A stretch of DNA of 64,000 bases from an uncultured Gammaproteobacteria bacterium (GTDB taxonomy: Bacteria > Patescibacteriota > Patescibacteriia > UBA1558 > UBA10009), in assembly GCA_964588165.1 (NCBI GenBank), contig CAZPMS010000006.1, forward strand, positions 3,425-67,424, given 5' to 3'. Both the position numbers and the translations under genes were made by a program. This document shows, piece after piece, positions 2,505-64,000 of this stretch. The notes under the pieces are model-generated. The model was not told the DNA's origin and ran no database searches. It worked only from the letters and a program-made list of their open reading frames with translations. The first letter of the stretch is position 1. Every line of letters starts with the position of its first letter.

Positions 2505-5075
2505 TTACTTATTAGCAGTGTCCTGCGAAAGCTTCATCCTTTCCAAAATCTCCTGTTCTACAATATTCCTGTCTCGGCCGTACTTTAAGCGCGAAGCTTC
2601 TTTAACTTTAAAAACGATTGATTTATCACCAGGCTTTGGCGGATAAGTTTTAATGTTAAAAGCCGGCACGTTCTGGTTATCTATTAATAATTTTAGATAG
2701 GCGTTAAACTTAGGAATATTTATTAAATCATATTCATTAAAAACAGGGTTAAACTGTTTAGCCACTAGTTCGGCATCATCCGGGCCTATCCTAAAGGAAG
2801 CCATTGTACCTACATTGCCAAAAACAGAATCCCTGATAGAAGTATCGTTGCCTTTTACCAGCTGGCCCACATATTGGTGCGCCACAGTTAAACTTAATTT
2901 ATATTTTCTGGCTTCTGATAAAATTATAGAAATGCTTTCGGTAATGAAATTTTGGAACTCATCTATATATAAATAATAATCGTGCCGCTTTTCTTCTGGC
3001 AATTCTACTCTGGAGAGGGCGGATATTAGAATCTTGCCAACAACTACCATGCCCAATAAATTTGCGGACATATCACCAATGGTCCCTTTGGCCAGTTTAA
3101 TTAGCAAAATCTTTTTCTTGTCCATTACTTCTCTAAAATTAAAAGAACTTTTTTGCTGGGCAATAATCGGCCTTAATAAATCGCTGGAGACAAATGGAGT
3201 TAATTTACTGGTGATATAAGGAACCATATTAGCCAATGATGCTTCGCCGCCGGCTTTTTCTGCCTCTTTCTCCCAAAAATCCCTTACCACCGGATTTACA
3301 CATTTAGAAAGCTTGTATCTCCTAAAATTAGGGTCGGCTAAAACCTTGGGTACTTCCAATAAAGTTGAGCCGGACACAGGATCTTCCATCATTAGCAGCA
3401 TGGCATTACGCATATACTGTTCAAACATTGGGCCACCGGTGGCTTTAAGGTCGTAGAGCTTATCAAAAATATTTATCATTTCGTTTATCACGAAAGTTTT
3501 TTGTTCCGGCGTGCTAAACTCCAGCATATTAAGCCCGATAGGCCTCTTGGTATCAGCTGGATCAAACAAAATTACATCGTCTACTCTGCCTTCGGGGATA
3601 TGCTCCATTACTGTTTCTATTAAATCTCCGTGGGGATCTATAACGCAAACGCCTTGGTTATTTTTAATGTCTTGGATTATCATGTTGGACATAAAAACAG
3701 ATTTACCGGTACCGGACTTGCCAATTATATACATATGCCTTAAGCGGTCCGAACTTTTAATTCTTATTGGCGCTTTTATTCCCCGATATAAATTCTCTCC
3801 CAAAATAAGGCCCTCTTTGGGTAAATTAAGAGGCGGCGTGGCCTTCCTGGCTTCTAACCAATTTATATTAGGTGTTTCTGAAGAAGGCAAAGGCAAGTGC
3901 CATAGGCTGGCCATTTCTTCAGCATTTAAAATTAAACTTTTTTTTGGAATAAAACTTCTATGGATAAAATTGGAGATCAATTTGGGAACTTTAATAAATT
4001 TTGCTTTTTTAAATCCATTGCCATATTCATAAATATTAAACTGAGAAAAAGCATTAATAATATTTTCTAAATAAGCCTCGGCCTTTTGCCTGTTTGGAGC
4101 AGAAACCACTACCCTTATGTTTGCTTCCATGCCTGCCTTGCTGGTTTTTTCTTCAATACCTTTTACCACCTCTGCTTCCATGGGAGAAAGCATTCTTCTT
4201 TCATCTGCTTCTTCTATATTTTTAGAAGCATCCTTTTTAGTTTTAAAAAAGCTTAAAGTGCCAACCACAGCGTTGGTTAGCTTATCAAAAATATTGCCTA
4301 AGCCTGCTTTCCTTAAAGCTACACTTAATTTTTTACCCTGTTGCATTTCTCTTGCTACAATTACTCCTTTGCGATGCCAGCTTTTATAAGCAGACCTAGC
4401 CACCAGCTGAATGGCTGCTCCTGATTCTTCACCTATTTTTGAAAAAGCATTGGTTAAAGCATTTAACGGATCGCTATCAGACTTTTTGTAAGTTTTAATT
4501 GGAAAAATAAAATCTCTGCCAAACTTTAAATAACTGCCAACCACCACGCCCTGGGCAGAAAAAATATTATAGTCTTCTAACTCCTCTATCTGTGCAAAAG
4601 GGTAAGAAGCATGGATTTGCTGTTCTAGGGTATCTTTTAAATAATCAGGAATGGCTACATAAAAATTAATCTTGCCATTTTGGGTTACGATTTCTACAGA
4701 AAAATGGTCTGATCTGCCAAAGATCCAGCTCTTTGTCCCTCTCTGGGCTTTAAGGCCGCCTAAAACAGAAAAAATGTTTTCCGCTACACCTATTTGTTCT
4801 TGGATTGTTTGGGGGGAATCATCGGCACCTTCTTTTTTTAAATTTTCTTTAGGCACGGTAATGAGCAAAATTTTCATTTTTAAAGCAGAAGGAACCTTAT
4901 TGCTTTTGGCTAAAAAACTTCTAACAATTAAAAAGGCGGTTATTAAAACCACCAACAAGATAAATATTAAAATAAAAGCTAAAAACCAAGTATTTTCCAA
5001 AAGGGCATTAGCCTGGGCAGTAAAAGGCGAATTTGACTCTATAACTATTTGCAAGGCAAACAAAGTTAAATACAT
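2505..5075 (-). CDS. VirD4/TraG-family (type IV coupling protein-like) P-loop NTPase with N-terminal membrane anchor
   Basis: 856 aa. N-terminal TM segments, Walker A IGKSGTGKS, Walker B-like YYLYIDEFQNF, then AHQYVGQL. Assignment by motif only. Confidence 0.65.
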   Translation of the reverse strand: MYLTLFALQIVIESNSPFTAQANALLENTWFLAFILIFILLVVLITAFLIVRSFLAKSNKVPSALKMKILLITVPKENLKKEGADDSPQTIQEQIGVAENIFSVLGGLKAQRGTKSWIFGRSDHFSVEIVTQNGKINFYVAIPDYLKDTLEQQIHASYPFAQIEELEDYNIFSAQGVVVGSYLKFGRDFIFPIKTYKKSDSDPLNALTNAFSKIGEESGAAIQLVARSAYKSWHRKGVIVAREMQQGKKLSVALRKAGLGNIFDKLTNAVVGTLSFFKTKKDASKNIEEADERRMLSPMEAEVVKGIEEKTSKAGMEANIRVVVSAPNRQKAEAYLENIINAFSQFNIYEYGNGFKKAKFIKVPKLISNFIHRSFIPKKSLILNAEEMASLWHLPLPSSETPNINWLEARKATPPLNLPKEGLILGENLYRGIKAPIRIKSSDRLRHMYIIGKSGTGKSVFMSNMIIQDIKNNQGVCVIDPHGDLIETVMEHIPEGRVDDVILFDPADTKRPIGLNMLEFSTPEQKTFVINEMINIFDKLYDLKATGGPMFEQYMRNAMLLMMEDPVSGSTLLEVPKVLADPNFRRYKLSKCVNPVVRDFWEKEAEKAGGEASLANMVPYITSKLTPFVSSDLLRPIIAQQKSSFNFREVMDKKKILLIKLAKGTIGDMSANLLGMVVVGKILISALSRVELPEEKRHDYYLYIDEFQNFITESISIILSEARKYKLSLTVAHQYVGQLVKGNDTSIRDSVFGNVGTMASFRIGPDDAELVAKQFNPVFNEYDLINIPKFNAYLKLLIDNQNVPAFNIKTYPPKPGDKSIVFKVKEASRLKYGRDRNIVEQEILERMKLSQDTANK

Positions 5076-6756: not shown

Positions 6757-7173
6757 CTACTCACTAAATACAACTATCTCCTCATTAGTTTCTTCCAACA
6801 TATACCTTAAAGTATATACTTGGCCGTCGGACCAATAATAATAAGAAATATTTTCTGAAGCTGATGGATCTTGAGGAACTTCACCTAAAGCATTAACTAA
6901 AGCTTCATAACCATTGCTGGCTTCATCATTTTGGAAAGGAAAATTGTTATTTTGGCTATTATACTCTGTTAACTTGTTTTGAACAGCTTGAATATCTTCT
7001 TTTCTCTTAATATCTCTTTGTTTTACCAATTCTTTTTCATGATCTATGCCAGCCATAACTCCAGTACTAACCAAACCGATAATAGCTAAAGCTAACGGAA
7101 TAACTAAGATAACAGCACCTTTTTTATCTCGCCATGAGTAAATTTGAGAAGCGGATTTATTAGTTAAATTCAT
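6757..7173 (-). CDS. hypothetical membrane-anchored protein, pilin/pseudopilin-like C-terminal region
   Basis: 138 aa with an N-terminal hydrophobic helix. The RDIKRKEDIQAVQNKLTEYNSQNNNFP stretch resembles type IV pilin-like globular-domain openings. No G/FTLIE cleavage motif. Confidence 0.4.
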   Translation of the reverse strand: MNLTNKSASQIYSWRDKKGAVILVIPLALAIIGLVSTGVMAGIDHEKELVKQRDIKRKEDIQAVQNKLTEYNSQNNNFPFQNDEASNGYEALVNALGEVPQDPSASENISYYYWSDGQVYTLRYMLEETNEEIVVFSE

Positions 7174-32034: not shown

Positions 32035-32132
32035 TGGCAGGGATTTGCCCCGCTTTTCGTGAAAGGCGGGATAAAAACCCAGACCAACGGTTTTGGACCC
32101 AGCCCTTCGCGAAGGGCTGGGTGGAGACCCTC
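32035..32132 (-). pseudogene. ghost of tRNA-Trp 3' half carrying two GC hairpin insertions
   Basis: Minus strand GAGGGTCTCCA[CCCAGCCCTTCGCGAAGGGCTGGG]TCCAAAACCGTTGGTCTGGGTT[..CCCGCCTTTCACGAAAAGCGGGG]CAAATCCCTGCCA aligns to the tRNA-Trp anticodon stem through CCA. The 3' acceptor strand is mostly deleted. Confidence 0.75.
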
Positions 32133-32148
32133 AAAAATCATATTATTT

Positions 32149-32223
32149 TGGCAGGAGCGCTAGGATTTGAACCCAGACCAACGGTTTTGGAGACCGTCAT
32201 GCTACCATTGACACCACGCTCCC
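32149..32223 (-). tRNA. tRNA-Trp (anticodon CCA)
   Basis: 75 nt cloverleaf GGGAGCG..ACGGT-CTCCAAA-ACCGT..CTGGG-TTCAAAT-CCTAG-CGCTCCT-G-CCA. CCA is encoded. Confidence 0.9.
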
Positions 32224-33308: not shown

Positions 33309-33415
33309 CCTACAGTTTATGCCGCCTTTAGGAGGTGGCAAAACTGTTGCTCCCTGCCCCGTTTACTCCAAACAAATGTGAGGAGTTATGCGGGGTACCA
33401 TTGAGCTACAACGGC
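33309..33415 (-). pseudogene. ghost tRNA-Thr(UGU), 5' two-thirds, different acceptor (GCCGTTG), two hairpin insertions
   Basis: GCCGTTGTAGCTCAATGGT[43-44 nt hairpin 33353-33396]GAGCAACAGTTTT[GCCACCTCCTAAAGGCGGC 33321-33339]ATAAACTGTAGG. T-arm and 3' acceptor are missing. Confidence 0.8.
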
Positions 33416-33553
33416 TCGTTAGACTCACGATGCCTCTCAACTTCGTTCGAGACACTCGACTTCTTCTTAATATATCTCATTATATATCTCATTAATAAAT
33501 TATGGTCGTAGGCCACGAGCGTAGTATCGAACAAAGTGAGATACGAAGTCGAG

Positions 33554-33638
33554 TGGTGGGCCGGGCAGGATTCGAACCTGCGAAGGCAGAGCCAACAGAT
33601 TTACAGTCTGTCCCGTTTGACCGCTTCGGTACCGACCC
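33554..33638 (-). tRNA. tRNA-Tyr (anticodon GUA), class II with long variable arm
   Basis: 85 nt GGGTCGG..ACAGA-CTGTAAA-TCTGT-TGGCTCTGCCTTC-GCAGG-TTCGAAT-CCTGC-CCGGCCC-A-CCA. Confidence 0.9.
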
Positions 33639-33882
33639 ACAAATTTTTAACTAGCTCCTTAAAGGCTCTTCCTCCTTTATAAGATTTTATCAGAAGCTCT
33701 CTTTTATATGCATCTTGTTTAGAAAAATATCTTTCCGAATAAACCAACTTCCAAGGGACACCTGATTTTGTTGATTTTACAAAACCTTTATTATGTCTAG
33801 CTAAACGATTAAATAAATTCTTACAATGACCTGTATAGTATCTATCTAAAGATTTACTATGCAATATATAAACTATAAACAT
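33601..33882 (-). CDS. small GIY-YIG nuclease-family protein whose 3' end is encoded by tRNA-Tyr
   Basis: IVYILHS..RYYTGHCKNLFNRLARH. ATG at 33882 (the track uses GTG at 33885). The last 38 nt are tRNA-Tyr positions 1-38, and the stop TAA is the GUAAA of the anticodon loop. Confidence 0.8.
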   Translation of the reverse strand: MFIVYILHSKSLDRYYTGHCKNLFNRLARHNKGFVKSTKSGVPWKLVYSERYFSKQDAYKRELLIKSYKGGRAFKELVKNLWVGTEAVKRDRL

Positions 33883-33896
33883 CACTTTTCATTTAA

Positions 33897-33995
33897 GATT
33901 TATGCCCGCCTATGGCGGCACCCCGCCGTAGGCGGTGGCAGTCTGTCCCGTTTATCCCGCCAAAGGCGGCGATTTGACCGCTTCGGTACCGACCC
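33897..33995 (-). pseudogene. ghost tRNA-Tyr 5' half (positions 1-41) with hairpin insertions in the D-loop and anticodon loop
   Basis: GGGTCGGTACCGAAGCGGTCAAA[TCGCCGCCTTTGGCGGGAT, TTT duplicated]AAACGGGACAGACTG[36-nt double hairpin 33903-33938]TAAATCT, then diverges into the GIY-YIG gene. Confidence 0.8.
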
Positions 33996-34086
33996 GATGG
34001 AGCCGTTGTGCGGACTCGAACCACAAACCCCTTCCTTACCCCCGCAAGATTTCGTTTCACTCAATCTGCGGGGCAAGCATGGAAGT

Positions 34087-34202
<116 letters not shown>

Positions 34203-34318
34203 AAGTGCTCCCTGCCCCGCTTACTCCGAACAAAAGTAGGAGTTATGCGGGGTACCAACTGAGCTACAACGGCAATAATGTTTTTTTAAAAAAACATATT
34301 CTTATGGCATAACTTCTT

Positions 34319-60773: not shown

Positions 60774-61607
60774 TTAATTTGTATCAATATTATTTTGTAG
60801 TTCTTCATTGGAAATAAATTTTGGCCAATTCGGAAGTTGTTGATTACTGTATCTGATAACCTCTGCTTGTGGGGTTTTCTTTTTCCTAATTTCTTCTCTA
60901 TCTTTTATTTCATCTAAAATACCGAATAACATTCTAAAGCTTCCATTATGCCCGGAAACTAAAATTTTTATTGGTCGGTTATTTTGTTCTTGAAACTTTT
61001 GGGCTAATTTATATACATCATTTAAAAACCAAATAAGTTTCCCCAGCACCATTGAATAATTTTCACCGCCTGGAAAAAATCTGCCATAAGAGAATCCCTT
61101 AGCTTTTTCTTCGGCTGCCAATGAATCTTTTTTCTGGCCACCATATTCACCGTAACACCTCTCATTTATTCTTTGATCGATAACAAACCTTTCTTCAGGA
61201 ATTTCTATACCAGCTGACTTTAAAGTTTCTCTGACAGTAACATCAGTTCTGCTCAAACCAGATCTAACTACCAAATCAAATTCTTCTCCTTCTAAATTTT
61301 TACCCATAGCCTGAGCCTGTTCATAACCTTTCTCGGTTAATTCAGCATCAACTGTTCCGGTAAATTTTTTTGCCTCATTATGGGTTGTTTGGGTATGCCT
61401 GATAAATGAAAAATCTATTGCTGTTTTACCAATCTCTTCTTTTAACTTTAAATATTGCTGATATAAATATTCTATTTTGGGTAAAATTTCTCTTAAAATA
61501 TCCGGAGTGGGAATATCTTCTAAATTTTTAGACAAGGTTGAAGCACTTTCCCATAGTTCTCTAATAGAAATTCTCTCTTGCTCAAATTGTGGACCCTCTT
61601 CGTTCAT
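60774..61607 (-). CDS. histidine phosphatase (phosphoglycerate mutase-like) family protein
   Basis: 277 aa. FIRHTQTTHN (RHG-type motif) and a later SGHNGSF (H of the catalytic pair). Confidence 0.65.
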   Translation of the reverse strand: MNEEGPQFEQERISIRELWESASTLSKNLEDIPTPDILREILPKIEYLYQQYLKLKEEIGKTAIDFSFIRHTQTTHNEAKKFTGTVDAELTEKGYEQAQAMGKNLEGEEFDLVVRSGLSRTDVTVRETLKSAGIEIPEERFVIDQRINERCYGEYGGQKKDSLAAEEKAKGFSYGRFFPGGENYSMVLGKLIWFLNDVYKLAQKFQEQNNRPIKILVSGHNGSFRMLFGILDEIKDREEIRKKKTPQAEVIRYSNQQLPNWPKFISNEELQNNIDTN

Positions 61608-61629: not shown

Positions 61630-61766
61630 CAGATTTTAAATCTTTTTTATATGATGCGGACAGATTTTAAATCTGCCCCTTTCTTACCGCTAACCACTTT
61701 ACCTATTTCGAAAACTTTCTCACCTGATTTTTCCAATTCTGAACGAACAGATTTTAAATCTGCCCC
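61630..61766. repeat. three copies of the 15-bp palindrome CAGATTT-T-AAATCTG at the purM 3' end
   Basis: Copies at 61630-61643 (14/15), 61661-61675 and 61748-61762. The last two are embedded in the 20-mer ACAGATTTTAAATCTGCCCC, 87 bp apart. Confidence 0.75.
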
Positions 61767-62684
61767 GACGATTAATACCATGCCAATGCCCATATTAAAA
61801 ACTCTATACATTTCTTCTTCTGCCACTTCTCCAACTTTTTGGATTAATTTAAAAATTGGCAGTATGTCCCAGGAATGTTTTTTTATCTCAACAGATAAAC
61901 GTTTTGGCAAAACTCTGGGAATATTATCTATAAATCCACCGCCAGTTATATGAGCAATACCGTTTATTTTTTCAACTAAAGGCAAAACTGACTTTACATA
62001 AGATTTATGTGGCATAGCCAACTCTTTGCCTAAACTAAAATTCAGTTCATCAAAATGGCTATCGGCCGTGTAATTATTTGCTTCAAAAAATATCTTTCTA
62101 ATTAAAGATGCGCCGTTAGTATGCATGCCGGATGATGCTAATCCCAGTAAAACATCACCTTCTTTAATTTTTTCACCGGTGATTATTTTATCTTTTTCTA
62201 CAATACCCGTAATACAGCCGGCTACATCATGTTCGCCTTTAACGTAGACTCCCGGCATTTCTGCAGTTTCTCCGCCAATTAAACTGACTCCGTTTTCCAT
62301 GCAGGCTTTGGCCATGCCTGTAACTATTTCTTCTATTTCTTTAGGATCAAGCTTATCGGCAGCTATGTAGTCTAAAAATGTTAAAGGTTTAGCTCCTTGG
62401 CACAAAATGTCATCACAGCAATGGTTAACAATATCCTCACCAACAGTTTCTAGGTTACCAACCATTTTGGCAACTTTAAGCTTAGTGCCTACGCCGTCTA
62501 TGCTTTGGACTAAAATTGGTTGGTTATAATCTTTTAATTGGCTGGCATCATACATGGCTCCAAAGGAACCTAAACCGGTAACCACATTGGCATCAAAAGT
62601 GGCCTTTACTTTATCTTTTATTTTATTTACTGCTTCATTACCGGCATCTATGTTAACACCAGAAGATTTATAACTAATTGACAT
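61647..62684 (-). CDS. purM: AIR synthetase (phosphoribosylformylglycinamidine cyclo-ligase)
   Basis: 345 aa. YKSSGVNIDAGN, DGVGTKL, GGETAEMPG. The C-terminal GADLKSVRII repeats an internal GADLKSVR. Confidence 0.93.
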   Translation of the reverse strand: MSISYKSSGVNIDAGNEAVNKIKDKVKATFDANVVTGLGSFGAMYDASQLKDYNQPILVQSIDGVGTKLKVAKMVGNLETVGEDIVNHCCDDILCQGAKPLTFLDYIAADKLDPKEIEEIVTGMAKACMENGVSLIGGETAEMPGVYVKGEHDVAGCITGIVEKDKIITGEKIKEGDVLLGLASSGMHTNGASLIRKIFFEANNYTADSHFDELNFSLGKELAMPHKSYVKSVLPLVEKINGIAHITGGGFIDNIPRVLPKRLSVEIKKHSWDILPIFKLIQKVGEVAEEEMYRVFNMGIGMVLIVGADLKSVRSELEKSGEKVFEIGKVVSGKKGADLKSVRII

Positions 62685-62746
62685 ATTTTTTACTTATTAA
62701 AAATATTTTAACACCGGCTTGTCCGCCGAAGCCTTGGCGTAGGTGG

Positions 62747-62787
62747 GCATCAATATTAACGCCTGATGATTTATAATCTATTGACAT
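62747..62787 (-). pseudogene. duplicated purM 5' end (first ~14 codons)
   Basis: Minus strand ATGTCAATAGATTATAAATCATCAGGCGTTAATATTGATGC (MSIDYKSSGVNIDA) versus the real MSISYKSSGVNIDA at 62684-62644. A GC hairpin (~62714-62735) lies between the copies. Confidence 0.75.
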
Positions 62788-62808
62788 ATTTTATTTATTA
62801 TATAATAT
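62781..62808 (+). promoter_or_regulatory. sigma70-type promoter of islet ORF 9
   Basis: TTGACA (62781-62786, the reverse complement of the duplicated purM ATGTCAA), N16, TAATAT. Confidence 0.55.
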
Positions 62809-62847
62809 ATATTAATTCGTACCTTTAAACCAACGAGGATTAAAAAA

Positions 62848-63345
62848 ATGCGTTTACGCAGCAGTGTTTTTCTAGCTTTATTACTGTTTTTGCTGTTTGG
62901 TTGTGGATTTATGTTTGAAGAACCGGAACAACCGACCTTTGAAGAAACCCTGAATCTAGTCCAACAATATACCTTTGAAGGGACGGTAGAAAAAACAGAA
63001 ATGCCCATATTTGATACCATTATCATATCTGCAAAGTCTGGAGGAAGAATATACACAATAGGGGTAATGAATCCCAACTGGATCTACTATAACCAAATGG
63101 ATCCTATTGCCCAGTTTGAAAACCCCTTTGATTATGAAAATGTTCATAATCTAAAAAATCAGTTAACAACTGGCTCCCGAATCCGTATTGCTATTAATCA
63201 AGCTCTACCAATTGAATGCAGTGTCCCTTTCAGACTAGTTTACGCAAATAATGATAGTATTCCTTATATCGACTATTTCCTCGAAGGTTTTACTATTCCA
63301 GCATATTTTTCTCCAACTGGTATTACTGAAATACCAATTCCTTGA
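62848..63345 (+). CDS. hypothetical lipoprotein (islet ORF 9)
   Basis: 165 aa. Signal peptide with lipobox LLFGC. SD GAGG. Sits between purM and purL on the opposite strand. Confidence 0.55.
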   Translation: MRLRSSVFLALLLFLLFGCGFMFEEPEQPTFEETLNLVQQYTFEGTVEKTEMPIFDTIIISAKSGGRIYTIGVMNPNWIYYNQMDPIAQFENPFDYENVHNLKNQLTTGSRIRIAINQALPIECSVPFRLVYANNDSIPYIDYFLEGFTIPAYFSPTGITEIPIP

Positions 63346-63361
63346 ATAACTCATTTTCCAA

Positions 63362-63389
63362 ACAGATAGCTTAGGCTGTCTGTTTTTCT
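63362..63389 (+). terminator. terminator of islet ORF 9
   Basis: ACAGATAGC / GCTGTCTGT stem followed by TTTTTC. Confidence 0.6.
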
Positions 63390-63400
63390 TATTTAAAAAA

Positions 63401-64000
63401 CTAATTATTCATTTTATCCCTTAAACCGTTCAACCATTTATCTGCCATTTCTTGAACTGATAAATTGATAATTTCTTGTACCGACGCAATGTCATCCTGA
63501 GCGGAGCCAAAGGATTGCGTCGCTACCTTTAGCGACTGACCACCAGTCTTACCTATTTCAATAGCTTCAATATTATATTTCTCACAAATCTTCTGTACCG
63601 ACGCAACATCCTTAGTTTCTAAAACAAAGCCGCCTGTTTCGGAAAATAATTTCCCTGACGGATAAATTCCGTCAGCTGCGGTTTGGGTGAATTCTATTTC
63701 GCAGCCAATTTTATTTTTCCCATTCCCGCCAAAACACATTTCAGCAAGAGCAACTGCCAATCCACCGTCTGATATATCATGGCAAGCCAACAGTAATTCA
63801 TTATCAATCATATCTGTTACTGCATATATTTGATTTTCTGCCTCTTTAAAATCAGGCTTTGGCACATTGGCACCTAACTCGTTATGGATTTGATAGTAGA
63901 CCGAACCGCCCAGTTCATCTTTACGTTGGCCAATTAATAAAATTGACGAACCGGTTTTTTTAAATTCCATAGTAATGGCCTTATTATAATCCTGAATTCT
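63401..64000 (-). CDS. purL: FGAM synthase II (PurL), C-terminal part; gene continues beyond window end
   Basis: ..LLACHDISDGGLAVALAEMCF.. is typical of the PurL C-terminal AIRS-C domain. The frame stays open to position 64000, and the track start at 63970 is only an internal Met. Confidence 0.88.
   Translation of the reverse strand, partial: RIQDYNKAITMEFKKTGSSILLIGQRKDELGGSVYYQIHNELGANVPKPDFKEAENQIYAVTDMIDNELLLACHDISDGGLAVALAEMCFGGNGKNKIGCEIEFTQTAADGIYPSGKLFSETGGFVLETKDVASVQKICEKYNIEAIEIGKTGGQSLKVATQSFGSAQDDIASVQEIINLSVQEMADKWLNGLRDKMNN
63482..63522 (-). repeat. GTCAT-type hairpin element inserted in frame within purL
   Basis: Plus strand CGACGCAAT-GTCATCCTGAGCGGAGCCAAAGG-ATTGCGTCG, translated as ..ATQSFGSAQDDIAS... 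The 12-mer GTACCGACGCAA is repeated at 63478 and 63595. Confidence 0.6.

Follow-up and report, generated by a model that had tools for sequence, protein, structure and literature searches.

The 5' end of purM is present twice in the window, the whole stretch of 64,000 nucleotides (nt) analysed here, whose 3' end carries the minus-strand purine operon of a marine Patescibacterium. Upstream of the working gene lies a second purM start, which we read, at about an even chance of being right, as the scar of a gene-start displacement that is linked to a dispersed GC-rich mini-element and is independent of the orphan lipoprotein gene beside it. The former start (62746-62787) would have been cut off from purM by a 103-nt block consisting of a 34-nt element, a 27-nt leader and a second, diverged start. 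The features concerned, including the relevant open reading frame (ORF), are:

61647-62684, minus strand: purM (AIR synthase), 345 residues, the working gene (ORF list; Pfam AIRS E=7e-22, AIRS_C E=3e-30).
62643-62689, minus strand: copy 1, the purM start in use, codons 1-14 with 5 nt upstream; by alignment to relatives the more divergent copy.
62685-62711, minus strand: AT-rich leader of 27 nt between the GC element and the purM ATG, read from the sequence.
62712-62745, minus strand: GC-rich dispersed element of 34 nt, CACCTACGCCAAGGCTTCGGCGGACAAGCCGGTG on the purM strand, with homologous copies in relatives.
62746-62792, minus strand: copy 2, ATG at 62787, codons 1-14; by alignment to relatives the displaced older purM start and consensus-like.

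The two copies form a direct repeat of 47 nt (62643-62689 against 62746-62792), identical at 39/47 positions and offset by 103 nt, that covers 14 purM codons and 5 nt upstream. Copy 1 (ATG at 62684) encodes MSISYKSSGVNIDA, while copy 2, hereafter the remnant, encodes MSIDYKSSGVNIDA. With a local repeat score of 23 the pair is the best in 62300-63100, and dinucleotide shuffles reach a mean of 9.5 and a maximum of 13, with 0/300 attaining 23. Formal alignment hence bears out the duplication first proposed in a sequence-only reading, which had it span some 14 codons and ~15 nt upstream. The codons and ~5 nt of the upstream part hold; similarity further upstream does not rise above the AT-rich background (z=1.4). 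Coincidental resemblance or misassembly, for which the AT-rich context is all that can be said, is hardly credible: chance similarity is ruled out by the shuffles and by the conserved purM N-terminus that both copies encode, and an assembly artefact is excluded since 62500-63460 is 100% identical across nine independently assembled contigs (JGI, ENA and Logan).

To place the two copies in order, they were compared with relatives in a set of ten related lineages (L numbers below) with 72-83% purM identity, found via protein clusters and contig look-ups; among the purM matches listed from genome and metagenome scans, most were distant relatives. The mismatches to functional purM starts, over 42 nt, are:

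L010: 2 for the remnant, 10 for the copy in use.
L180: 5 for the remnant, 11 for the copy in use.
L171: 5 for the remnant, 9 for the copy in use.
L174: 7 for the remnant, 9 for the copy in use.

The remnant differs from the copy in use at 8/42 positions, and its first 23 nt are identical to the L171 purM start. The eight differences fall in seven codons, only one of which alters the amino acid, compared with 5.4 expected from random substitution (P≈5e-5). In about six differences the direction of change can be read, and in at least five of these the functional copy has the derived state. The distance from the remnant ATG to the lipoprotein ATG is 60 nt, and that from the functional purM ATG of L171 to the ATG of its divergent ORF is 61 nt. 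As the remnant is consensus-like and keeps the native spacing to the divergent gene, it would be the older start left in place. Judged from these alignments, the upstream copy (62746-62787) is the former purM start, still in its original context, and the copy in use is the divergent one; on the same comparison, the segment made of element, leader and second start is the newer part. The copies do not constitute a local duplicate left to decay, because their differences are nearly all synonymous and the remnant is consensus-like.

The chief rival history would have a ~60-nt segment with the purM start tandemly duplicated in situ, the GC element later entering the dispensable upstream copy, and the functional copy drifting synonymously while the upstream copy was kept by selection as promoter, upstream open reading frame (uORF) or both. 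We consider this possible though doubtful. It is the simplest single-genome history, and several features fit it: the period of 103 nt equals 42 + 34 + 27, an A-rich ...TAAAA(A)AT precedes both ATGs, similar GC elements occupy many non-essential spots, and an intact remnant is confined to the case in which a divergent gene could make use of it. However, a neutral remnant should carry most of the changes, which is contrary to the polarity described above (binomial estimate ~0.003). Furthermore, a 6-nt -35 box hardly explains why the whole 42 nt should be constrained, among them positions at which the functional starts of relatives differ, and the upstream similarity expected of a tandem unit is the non-significant one given above.

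The lipoprotein gene adjoining the remnant lies on the opposite strand and is framed by promoter, ribosome-binding and terminator signals:

62781-62808, plus strand: promoter-like site TTGACA-16 nt-TAATAT (consensus scan, 10/12 matches).
62835-62839, plus strand: GAGGA ribosome-binding site, 8 nt before the lipoprotein ATG, read from the sequence.
62848-63345, plus strand: orphan ORF of 165 residues, probable lipoprotein (MRLRSSVFLALLLFLLFG-C; ORF list).
63360-63385, plus strand: intrinsic terminator of the lipoprotein gene, with a boundary motif common to the islets of relatives (terminator scan).

The purL-purM junction of the relatives bears directly on whether this gene and the duplication belong together. 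purL and purM are 3-5 nt apart in L170, L175/176, L010 and L180/181. In four other lineages the interval is occupied as follows:

L090: a palindromic spacer of 178 nt.
L171: an opposite-strand ORF of 155 residues (ORF155).
L172: an opposite-strand ORF of 85 residues.
L179: an opposite-strand membrane ORF of ~200 residues with one in-frame TGA.

The opposite-strand genes at this junction differ among lineages. Their outer boundary beside the purL stop carries a rare motif, AAATAA(G)AAAAAC(G)GACAG, which is common to the window, L171, L172 and L179 and forms a terminator. The L179 ORF (3826-4552, opposite strand) is multi-pass, and its TGA may mean a pseudogene, a sequencing error or recoding. 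The L090 spacer (4823-5000) and that of L177 (4779-~4900) hold long palindromic elements built from GATACAAG/CTTGTATC motifs that resemble transposable elements of the miniature inverted-repeat kind (MITEs).

The duplication itself recurs in two groups that have no gene between purL and purM. In L177/L178/L182-184, the 222-nt spacer reads in order remnant ATGTCAATAGATTACAGATCATC, CCTGCCTTCGCCAGGGCTTCGGCGGGCAAGCCGGCG, 30 nt and the real purM start (MINYKNSG...); the remnant encodes MSIDYRSS and has 2/23 mismatches to that of the window. In L186/L187, with a 167-nt spacer, the remnant is decayed, its ATG lost, yet colinear (24/42 identical), and a decayed copy of the element sits at the same junction, directly after codon 14, followed by a 29-nt leader and purM. 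Both elements are homologous to the window copy (z=10.7 for L177, z=7.5 for L187). The L177 junction is compatible with the same event plus an 18-nt deletion (alignment A2), and the triplet after the element is each lineage's own codon 15 (GGT in the window, GGC in L177). L171, conversely, has an ORF at the same place, with the 60/61-nt spacing found in the window, and no duplication.

These junctions speak against the claim that the duplication marks the islet boundary or was made by islet insertion, since the L177 and L186/L187 lineages have the arrangement without the gene. Finding the duplication in relatives that lack the lipoprotein gene is the outcome that the sequence-only reading had itself named as refuting its proposal. 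We regard it as unlikely that insertion of the islet between purL and purM generated the duplicated purM end as a boundary signature. The remnant does adjoin the islet directly, and other remnants lie near small inserted genes, such as a GIY-YIG ORF that has tRNA-Tyr on one side and a duplicate of the 5' half of this tRNA on the other; L171, the sister of L177, has an ORF at the site, and L177 might have lost one. Against this, the lipoprotein gene stands outside the repeat pair, which encloses only the GC element and the 27-nt leader, the arrangement is absent from L171 despite its gene, and the neighbouring ORFs examined include no integrase or transposase. Given that the duplication occurs without the gene and that L171 has a gene there without the duplication, the remnant and the islet at purM are separable events.

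For the displacement itself, the most parsimonious mechanism would be that two diverged purM alleles recombined and so displaced the 5' end of the gene, the GC element lying at the joint. Recombination may have been anchored in GATGCCGGYAATGAAGC just after codon 13, a block conserved at the nucleotide level in all relatives; this block begins where the remnant ends. The arrangement is common to the two other Patescibacteria lineages, either by descent or by recombination between lineages. The leader matches the contiguous purL-stop/purM-start junction of L010 at 19/31 positions, in the top 1.3% of 78 upstream regions, which is weak evidence. The sequences from the GC element to the ATG are unrelated between the window and L177 (z=-0.4). 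An Rfam scan of 62500-63500, on both strands and at a permissive E-value, gave only noise, with no riboswitch or known leader family.

The old start may have been put to new use on both strands. On the minus strand it opens an additional reading frame:

62674-62787, minus strand: uORF of 37 codons (MSIDYKSSGVNIDAHLRQGFGGQAGVKIFLISKKYVN*; ORF list), called as a gene in all contigs.

The uORF runs from the remnant ATG through the GC element to a TAG stop 8 nt inside purM (ATGTCAATTAG). L177 has an analogous uORF of 23 codons, and that of L187 is decayed. Because a convergent gene and its terminator separate purM from purL, and the leader at 62685-62711 has no Shine-Dalgarno sequence before the purM ATG, the uORF could provide translational coupling for purM, replacing the purL-purM coupling of those relatives with a 3-5-nt junction. 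Its stop position, 8 nt after the purM ATG, resembles that of the coupling uORFs (termination-reinitiation) of bacterial operons. Unlike those known cases, this uORF, for which we infer the coupling, would be a leftover of the purM start itself, joined to a repeat element, and its counterpart has decayed in L187.

On the plus strand, the remnant may provide the -35-like TTGACA and the upstream region of a lipoprotein promoter. As had been pointed out, reversing and complementing the remnant's ATGTCAA yields the hexamer at 62781-62786, and the promoter-like site lies 40 nt upstream of the lipoprotein ATG with its GAGGA. TTGACA/TAATAT is a plausible, putative lipoprotein promoter. The notion that the duplication supplied the -35 box turns the order around. 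As the first purM start, still in its native setting, the remnant would have carried the -35-like hexamer before the duplication arose. The remnant is intact where the lipoprotein gene is present and is truncated or decayed in the two lineages that have no such gene, which lends its promoter role indirect support.

Several observations weigh against this displacement history and the roles that follow from it. No sampled lineage has a copy-1-type start, and no donor allele was found. The N-terminal half of purM is too conserved to show mosaicism, the purL, purM and purQ trees are congruent, and nucleotide identity to all relatives is saturated (~70-78%). The last ~150 codons of purL do shift toward L177-like states (7A/21B against 26A/8B informative sites), a weak signal that palindrome-encoded loops produce in part. 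Ser4 of copy 1 is also present in the close relative P0004, and hence copy 1 may simply be native. The uORF staying open is not significant by itself. As for the promoter, matches of this kind are not enriched in the region (7 found, 4.6±1.9 expected from shuffles), and L171 has the same TTGACA without an acceptable -10, no consensus promoter being found there. The two hexamers and their 16-nt spacing do agree with a sigma-70-type promoter, in which 16-18 nt are expected between the boxes, and the distance to the gene is suitable. In view of the absent donor, the congruent trees, saturated identity with an uninformative purM and the confounded purL signal, the recombination step is one that we infer.

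Two further scenarios were rejected. Xenologous replacement of purM alone is ruled out by the congruent purL, purM and purQ trees, in which the window groups with L170 and L175. Recent transfer is ruled out by the nucleotide identity to every relative, which is ~70-78% and saturated.

The GC-rich element sits directly after codon 14 of the remnant and reads HLRQGFGGQAG in the remnant's frame. The element is single-copy within the 64-kb window, with homologous copies in five other lineages and one viral contig. Copies are found in frame inside purL of L090 (RLRQGFGGQA) and L172 (in another frame, SAKASEDK). When the purL sequences are aligned, in-frame coding insertions stand opposite gap columns in relatives, comprising those of L090 and L172, L180 (PRLRSGQA), the window (VATQSFGSAQDDIAS) and copies in L171. 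In the purL genes of these lineages, a few loops are also hot spots for several further short insertions, in frame and either GC-rich or palindromic.

The sequence-only reading had placed a GC hairpin between the two copies. A conserved GC-rich insert is present there, whereas its folding energy of -11.4 kcal/mol does not surpass that of shuffled sequence (z≈0), and six copies give no consistent structure. The element was passed over in the terminator scan. A hairpin or terminator role was rejected on the grounds of the unexceptional fold and the missing terminator call. A target-site-duplication model was likewise rejected for the window element, as the flanks of its core are not significantly alike (z=1.0); an 11-nt flank repeat of the element is found in L177 only (z=3.6). 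Judged as a MITE, the window element has no terminal inverted repeats, and the repeats around it are 47 nt long, where target-site duplications would measure 2-15 bp, and not immediately symmetric.

A match to the element occurs outside the phylum. In L185 (IMGVR_UViG_3300045935_000065), the 23-mer CGCCAAGGCTTCGGCGGACAAGC at 6758-6780 is an exact match to the degenerate core pattern of the GC element. It directly follows a capsid-like ORF on a high-GC viral contig, and forms a strong 11-bp hairpin there.

Other palindromic insertions were noted in the two genes. In purL (63482-63522, minus strand), a perfect 9-bp palindrome, CGACGCAAT...ATTGCGTCG around GTCATCCTGAGCGGAGCCAAAGGA, amounts to ~10 codons inserted in frame (VATQSFGSAQDDIAS) in the C-terminal linker, and the same peptide recurs in L171 in a different purL loop. 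A 20-nt direct repeat (63470-63489 and 63587-63606; 85%, 117 nt apart) surrounds this palindrome. The purL loop at window residues ~700-710 is encoded by either of two palindromes depending on the lineage, CTGACGGAATTTATCCGTCAG (ADGIYPS) or CGACGCAAAATTTTGCGTCG (ATQNFAS), and such alternative loops mimic the signal of recombination when phylogenies are tested. The 3' end of purM has the palindrome CAGATTTTAAATCTG three times (61630-61644, 61661-61675 and 61748-61762): one copy codes for the conserved VGADLKSVR, another extends the C-terminus by ADLKS compared with the GKKGVRLI of relatives, and a further one follows the stop. The palindrome recurs in L170, immediately behind the purM stop.

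The layout at purM is matched at two other places in the window. At tRNA-Trp (94-nt period) and tRNA-Thr(GGT) (106-nt period), the order is again an intact gene end, ~27-29 nt, a GC hairpin and a diverged remnant. Downstream of tRNA-Trp (32069-32133 and 32149-32223), a GC hairpin (CCCAGCCCTTCGCGAAGGGCTGGG) is followed by the remnant, a 29-nt, 90% copy from anticodon to T-stem, and then by a second GC hairpin. For tRNA-Thr(GGT) (33998-34040 and 34104-34179), the 3' half recurs as a 43-nt copy, 106 nt downstream of the intact gene and behind a hairpin; the copy begins exactly at the anticodon and has compensatory T-stem changes. At 33554-33997, a GIY-YIG ORF (33601-33885, Pfam E=8e-12) extends into the 5' end of tRNA-Tyr and is preceded by a tRNA-Tyr 5'-half copy that is interrupted by two GC hairpins (33897-33997). 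The tRNA and GIY-YIG cases agree with the earlier remark that, in this genome, remnants of gene ends gather close to small inserted genes. Two tRNA-like 5' fragments (~33365-33425 and ~34215-34275, minus strand), with the layout GCCGTTGTAGCTCA.TGGTA + CCCCGC...GCGGGG hairpin + CAGGGAGCA, sit upstream of the two tRNA-Thr genes and are not called by ARAGORN. Among the ORFs neighbouring the remnants, no integrase, transposase or recombinase domain was found.

These parallels invite the explanation that a site-specific integrative element targeted the purM 5' end, brought a replacement start with it (attL/attR) and has since been almost wholly deleted. tRNA genes are classical integrase targets, the same architecture occurs at two of them, with the tRNA-Thr remnant starting at the anticodon, and the replaced purM end differs at synonymous sites, as an attP-borne copy would. 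Such a scar is nevertheless improbable, given that only 61 nt separate the repeats, that the examined parts of the window showed no integrase, and that the inter-repeat sequence is a dispersed element, in frame in purL of other lineages, and not cargo. As in attL/attR duplications, a gene end is directly repeated and the functional copy differs while preserving function; unlike them, the purM repeats enclose no integrase or island, and the lipoprotein gene is outside.

A broader proposal extends from purM to the tRNA remnants. The 34-nt element (core CGCCARGGCTTCGGCGGRCAAGC, usually LRQGFGGQ) might represent a low-copy, cross-lineage family that, in Patescibacteria, inserts in frame into essential genes and triggers or joins gene-end duplications or displacements of ~100 nt at purM, tRNA-Trp and tRNA-Thr. 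We put this forward as speculative and rather improbable. If it were true, GC-rich mini-elements would be a previously undescribed driver of gene-end remnants and of the exchange of small envelope-gene islets between diverged genomes. A literature search retrieved no description of such elements in Patescibacteria.

Of known systems, the closest is homology-facilitated illegitimate recombination (HFIR), thought to leave orphaned gene ends in Rhs/contact-dependent inhibition toxin tips and type VI secretion system effector-immunity arrays (PMC5361080, PMC3240628). Here, too, a conserved gene stretch occurs twice, once in the working gene and once as a displaced stub beside it, the copies resemble different alleles and not decayed duplicates, and the distribution among relatives is patchy. 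A single amino-acid change and a remnant nearer to the starts of other lineages are what two alleles shaped by selection, as opposed to a decaying duplicate, present. In contrast to HFIR orphan ends, the purM piece is the 5' end (42 nt) of a housekeeping gene instead of a variable 3' toxin tip, the interval between the copies has no cargo gene, just the 34-nt GC element and the leader, and no donor allele is identified. The purM arrangement would be a recombination scar of a known type in altered form.

The element itself is most readily compared with the Rickettsia palindromic elements (RPEs), reviewed with other intragenic MITEs in PMC10969869. Both are short non-coding repeat families that form in-frame insertions in tolerant loops of protein-coding genes, with copies here in purL of L090, L172, L180, L171 and the window and in the purM remnant. 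Where RPEs measure ~100-150 nt, the GC element is ~30-40 nt long and single-copy in the window. It differs further in having no terminal inverted repeats, significant fold or demonstrated target-site duplication, and in that its 23-mer is also found in the high-GC viral contig.

Outside L171, the lipoprotein ORF has no detectable homologue. Reading its translation, the N-terminus consists of MRLR, SSVFLALLLFLLF and G, then C19, so that the signal peptide ends in LLFG before the cysteine; this presumably fits the PROSITE PS51257 pattern. No Pfam or PHROG family was assigned to it, and no homologue emerged from a word-index search or a full phmmer search against 1.84 billion representatives (libraries of 5.8 billion or 1.84 billion proteins). 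The single-sequence AlphaFold (AF2) model has a predicted local distance difference test (pLDDT) score of 39 and is unusable. Weak similarity exists to ORF155 of L171 (local alignment z=3.1), with which it has in common an N-terminal MRL(K/R)..SS and, near the C-terminus, L(V/I)Y..(D/N)..IPY(I/V)(D/N).

The remaining gene bordering the junction in the window is:

63401-64000, minus strand: purL 3' end, which leaves the window (Pfam AIRS_C; the complete purL, of 800 residues, is present in L001).

On the minus strand, the operon runs purL, purM, a histidine-phosphatase gene, purQ and further pur genes; the purQ gene shows a weak C-terminal PurS match. The His_Phos_1 gene (60774-61607) that separates purM from purQ is another small inserted gene in the operon, given that purQ follows purM directly in most relatives (L170, L010, L177, L180), with a NUDIX gene between them in L175. 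Among the matches listed, the purM protein is 72-83% identical to Patescibacteria purM, and the nearest relatives are uncultured Patescibacteria, some labelled Komeilibacteria. The purL-purM locus has been independently assembled from several marine metagenomes.

The duplicated host-gene end beside an orphan gene is, at this locus, not the footprint of that gene's insertion, which corrects a tempting inference. The junction shows by example how, in the reduced genomes of Patescibacteria, an essential gene within an operon can have its start displaced and rebuilt, with the old start perhaps serving anew, both as promoter of a divergent envelope gene and as coupling uORF. It also points to a family of short GC-rich elements that occupy loops of purL/purM in frame in different lineages and are found at three of the window's gene-end remnants. 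If these elements are mobile or recombinogenic, they would be of relevance for annotation and for genome plasticity in the phylum.

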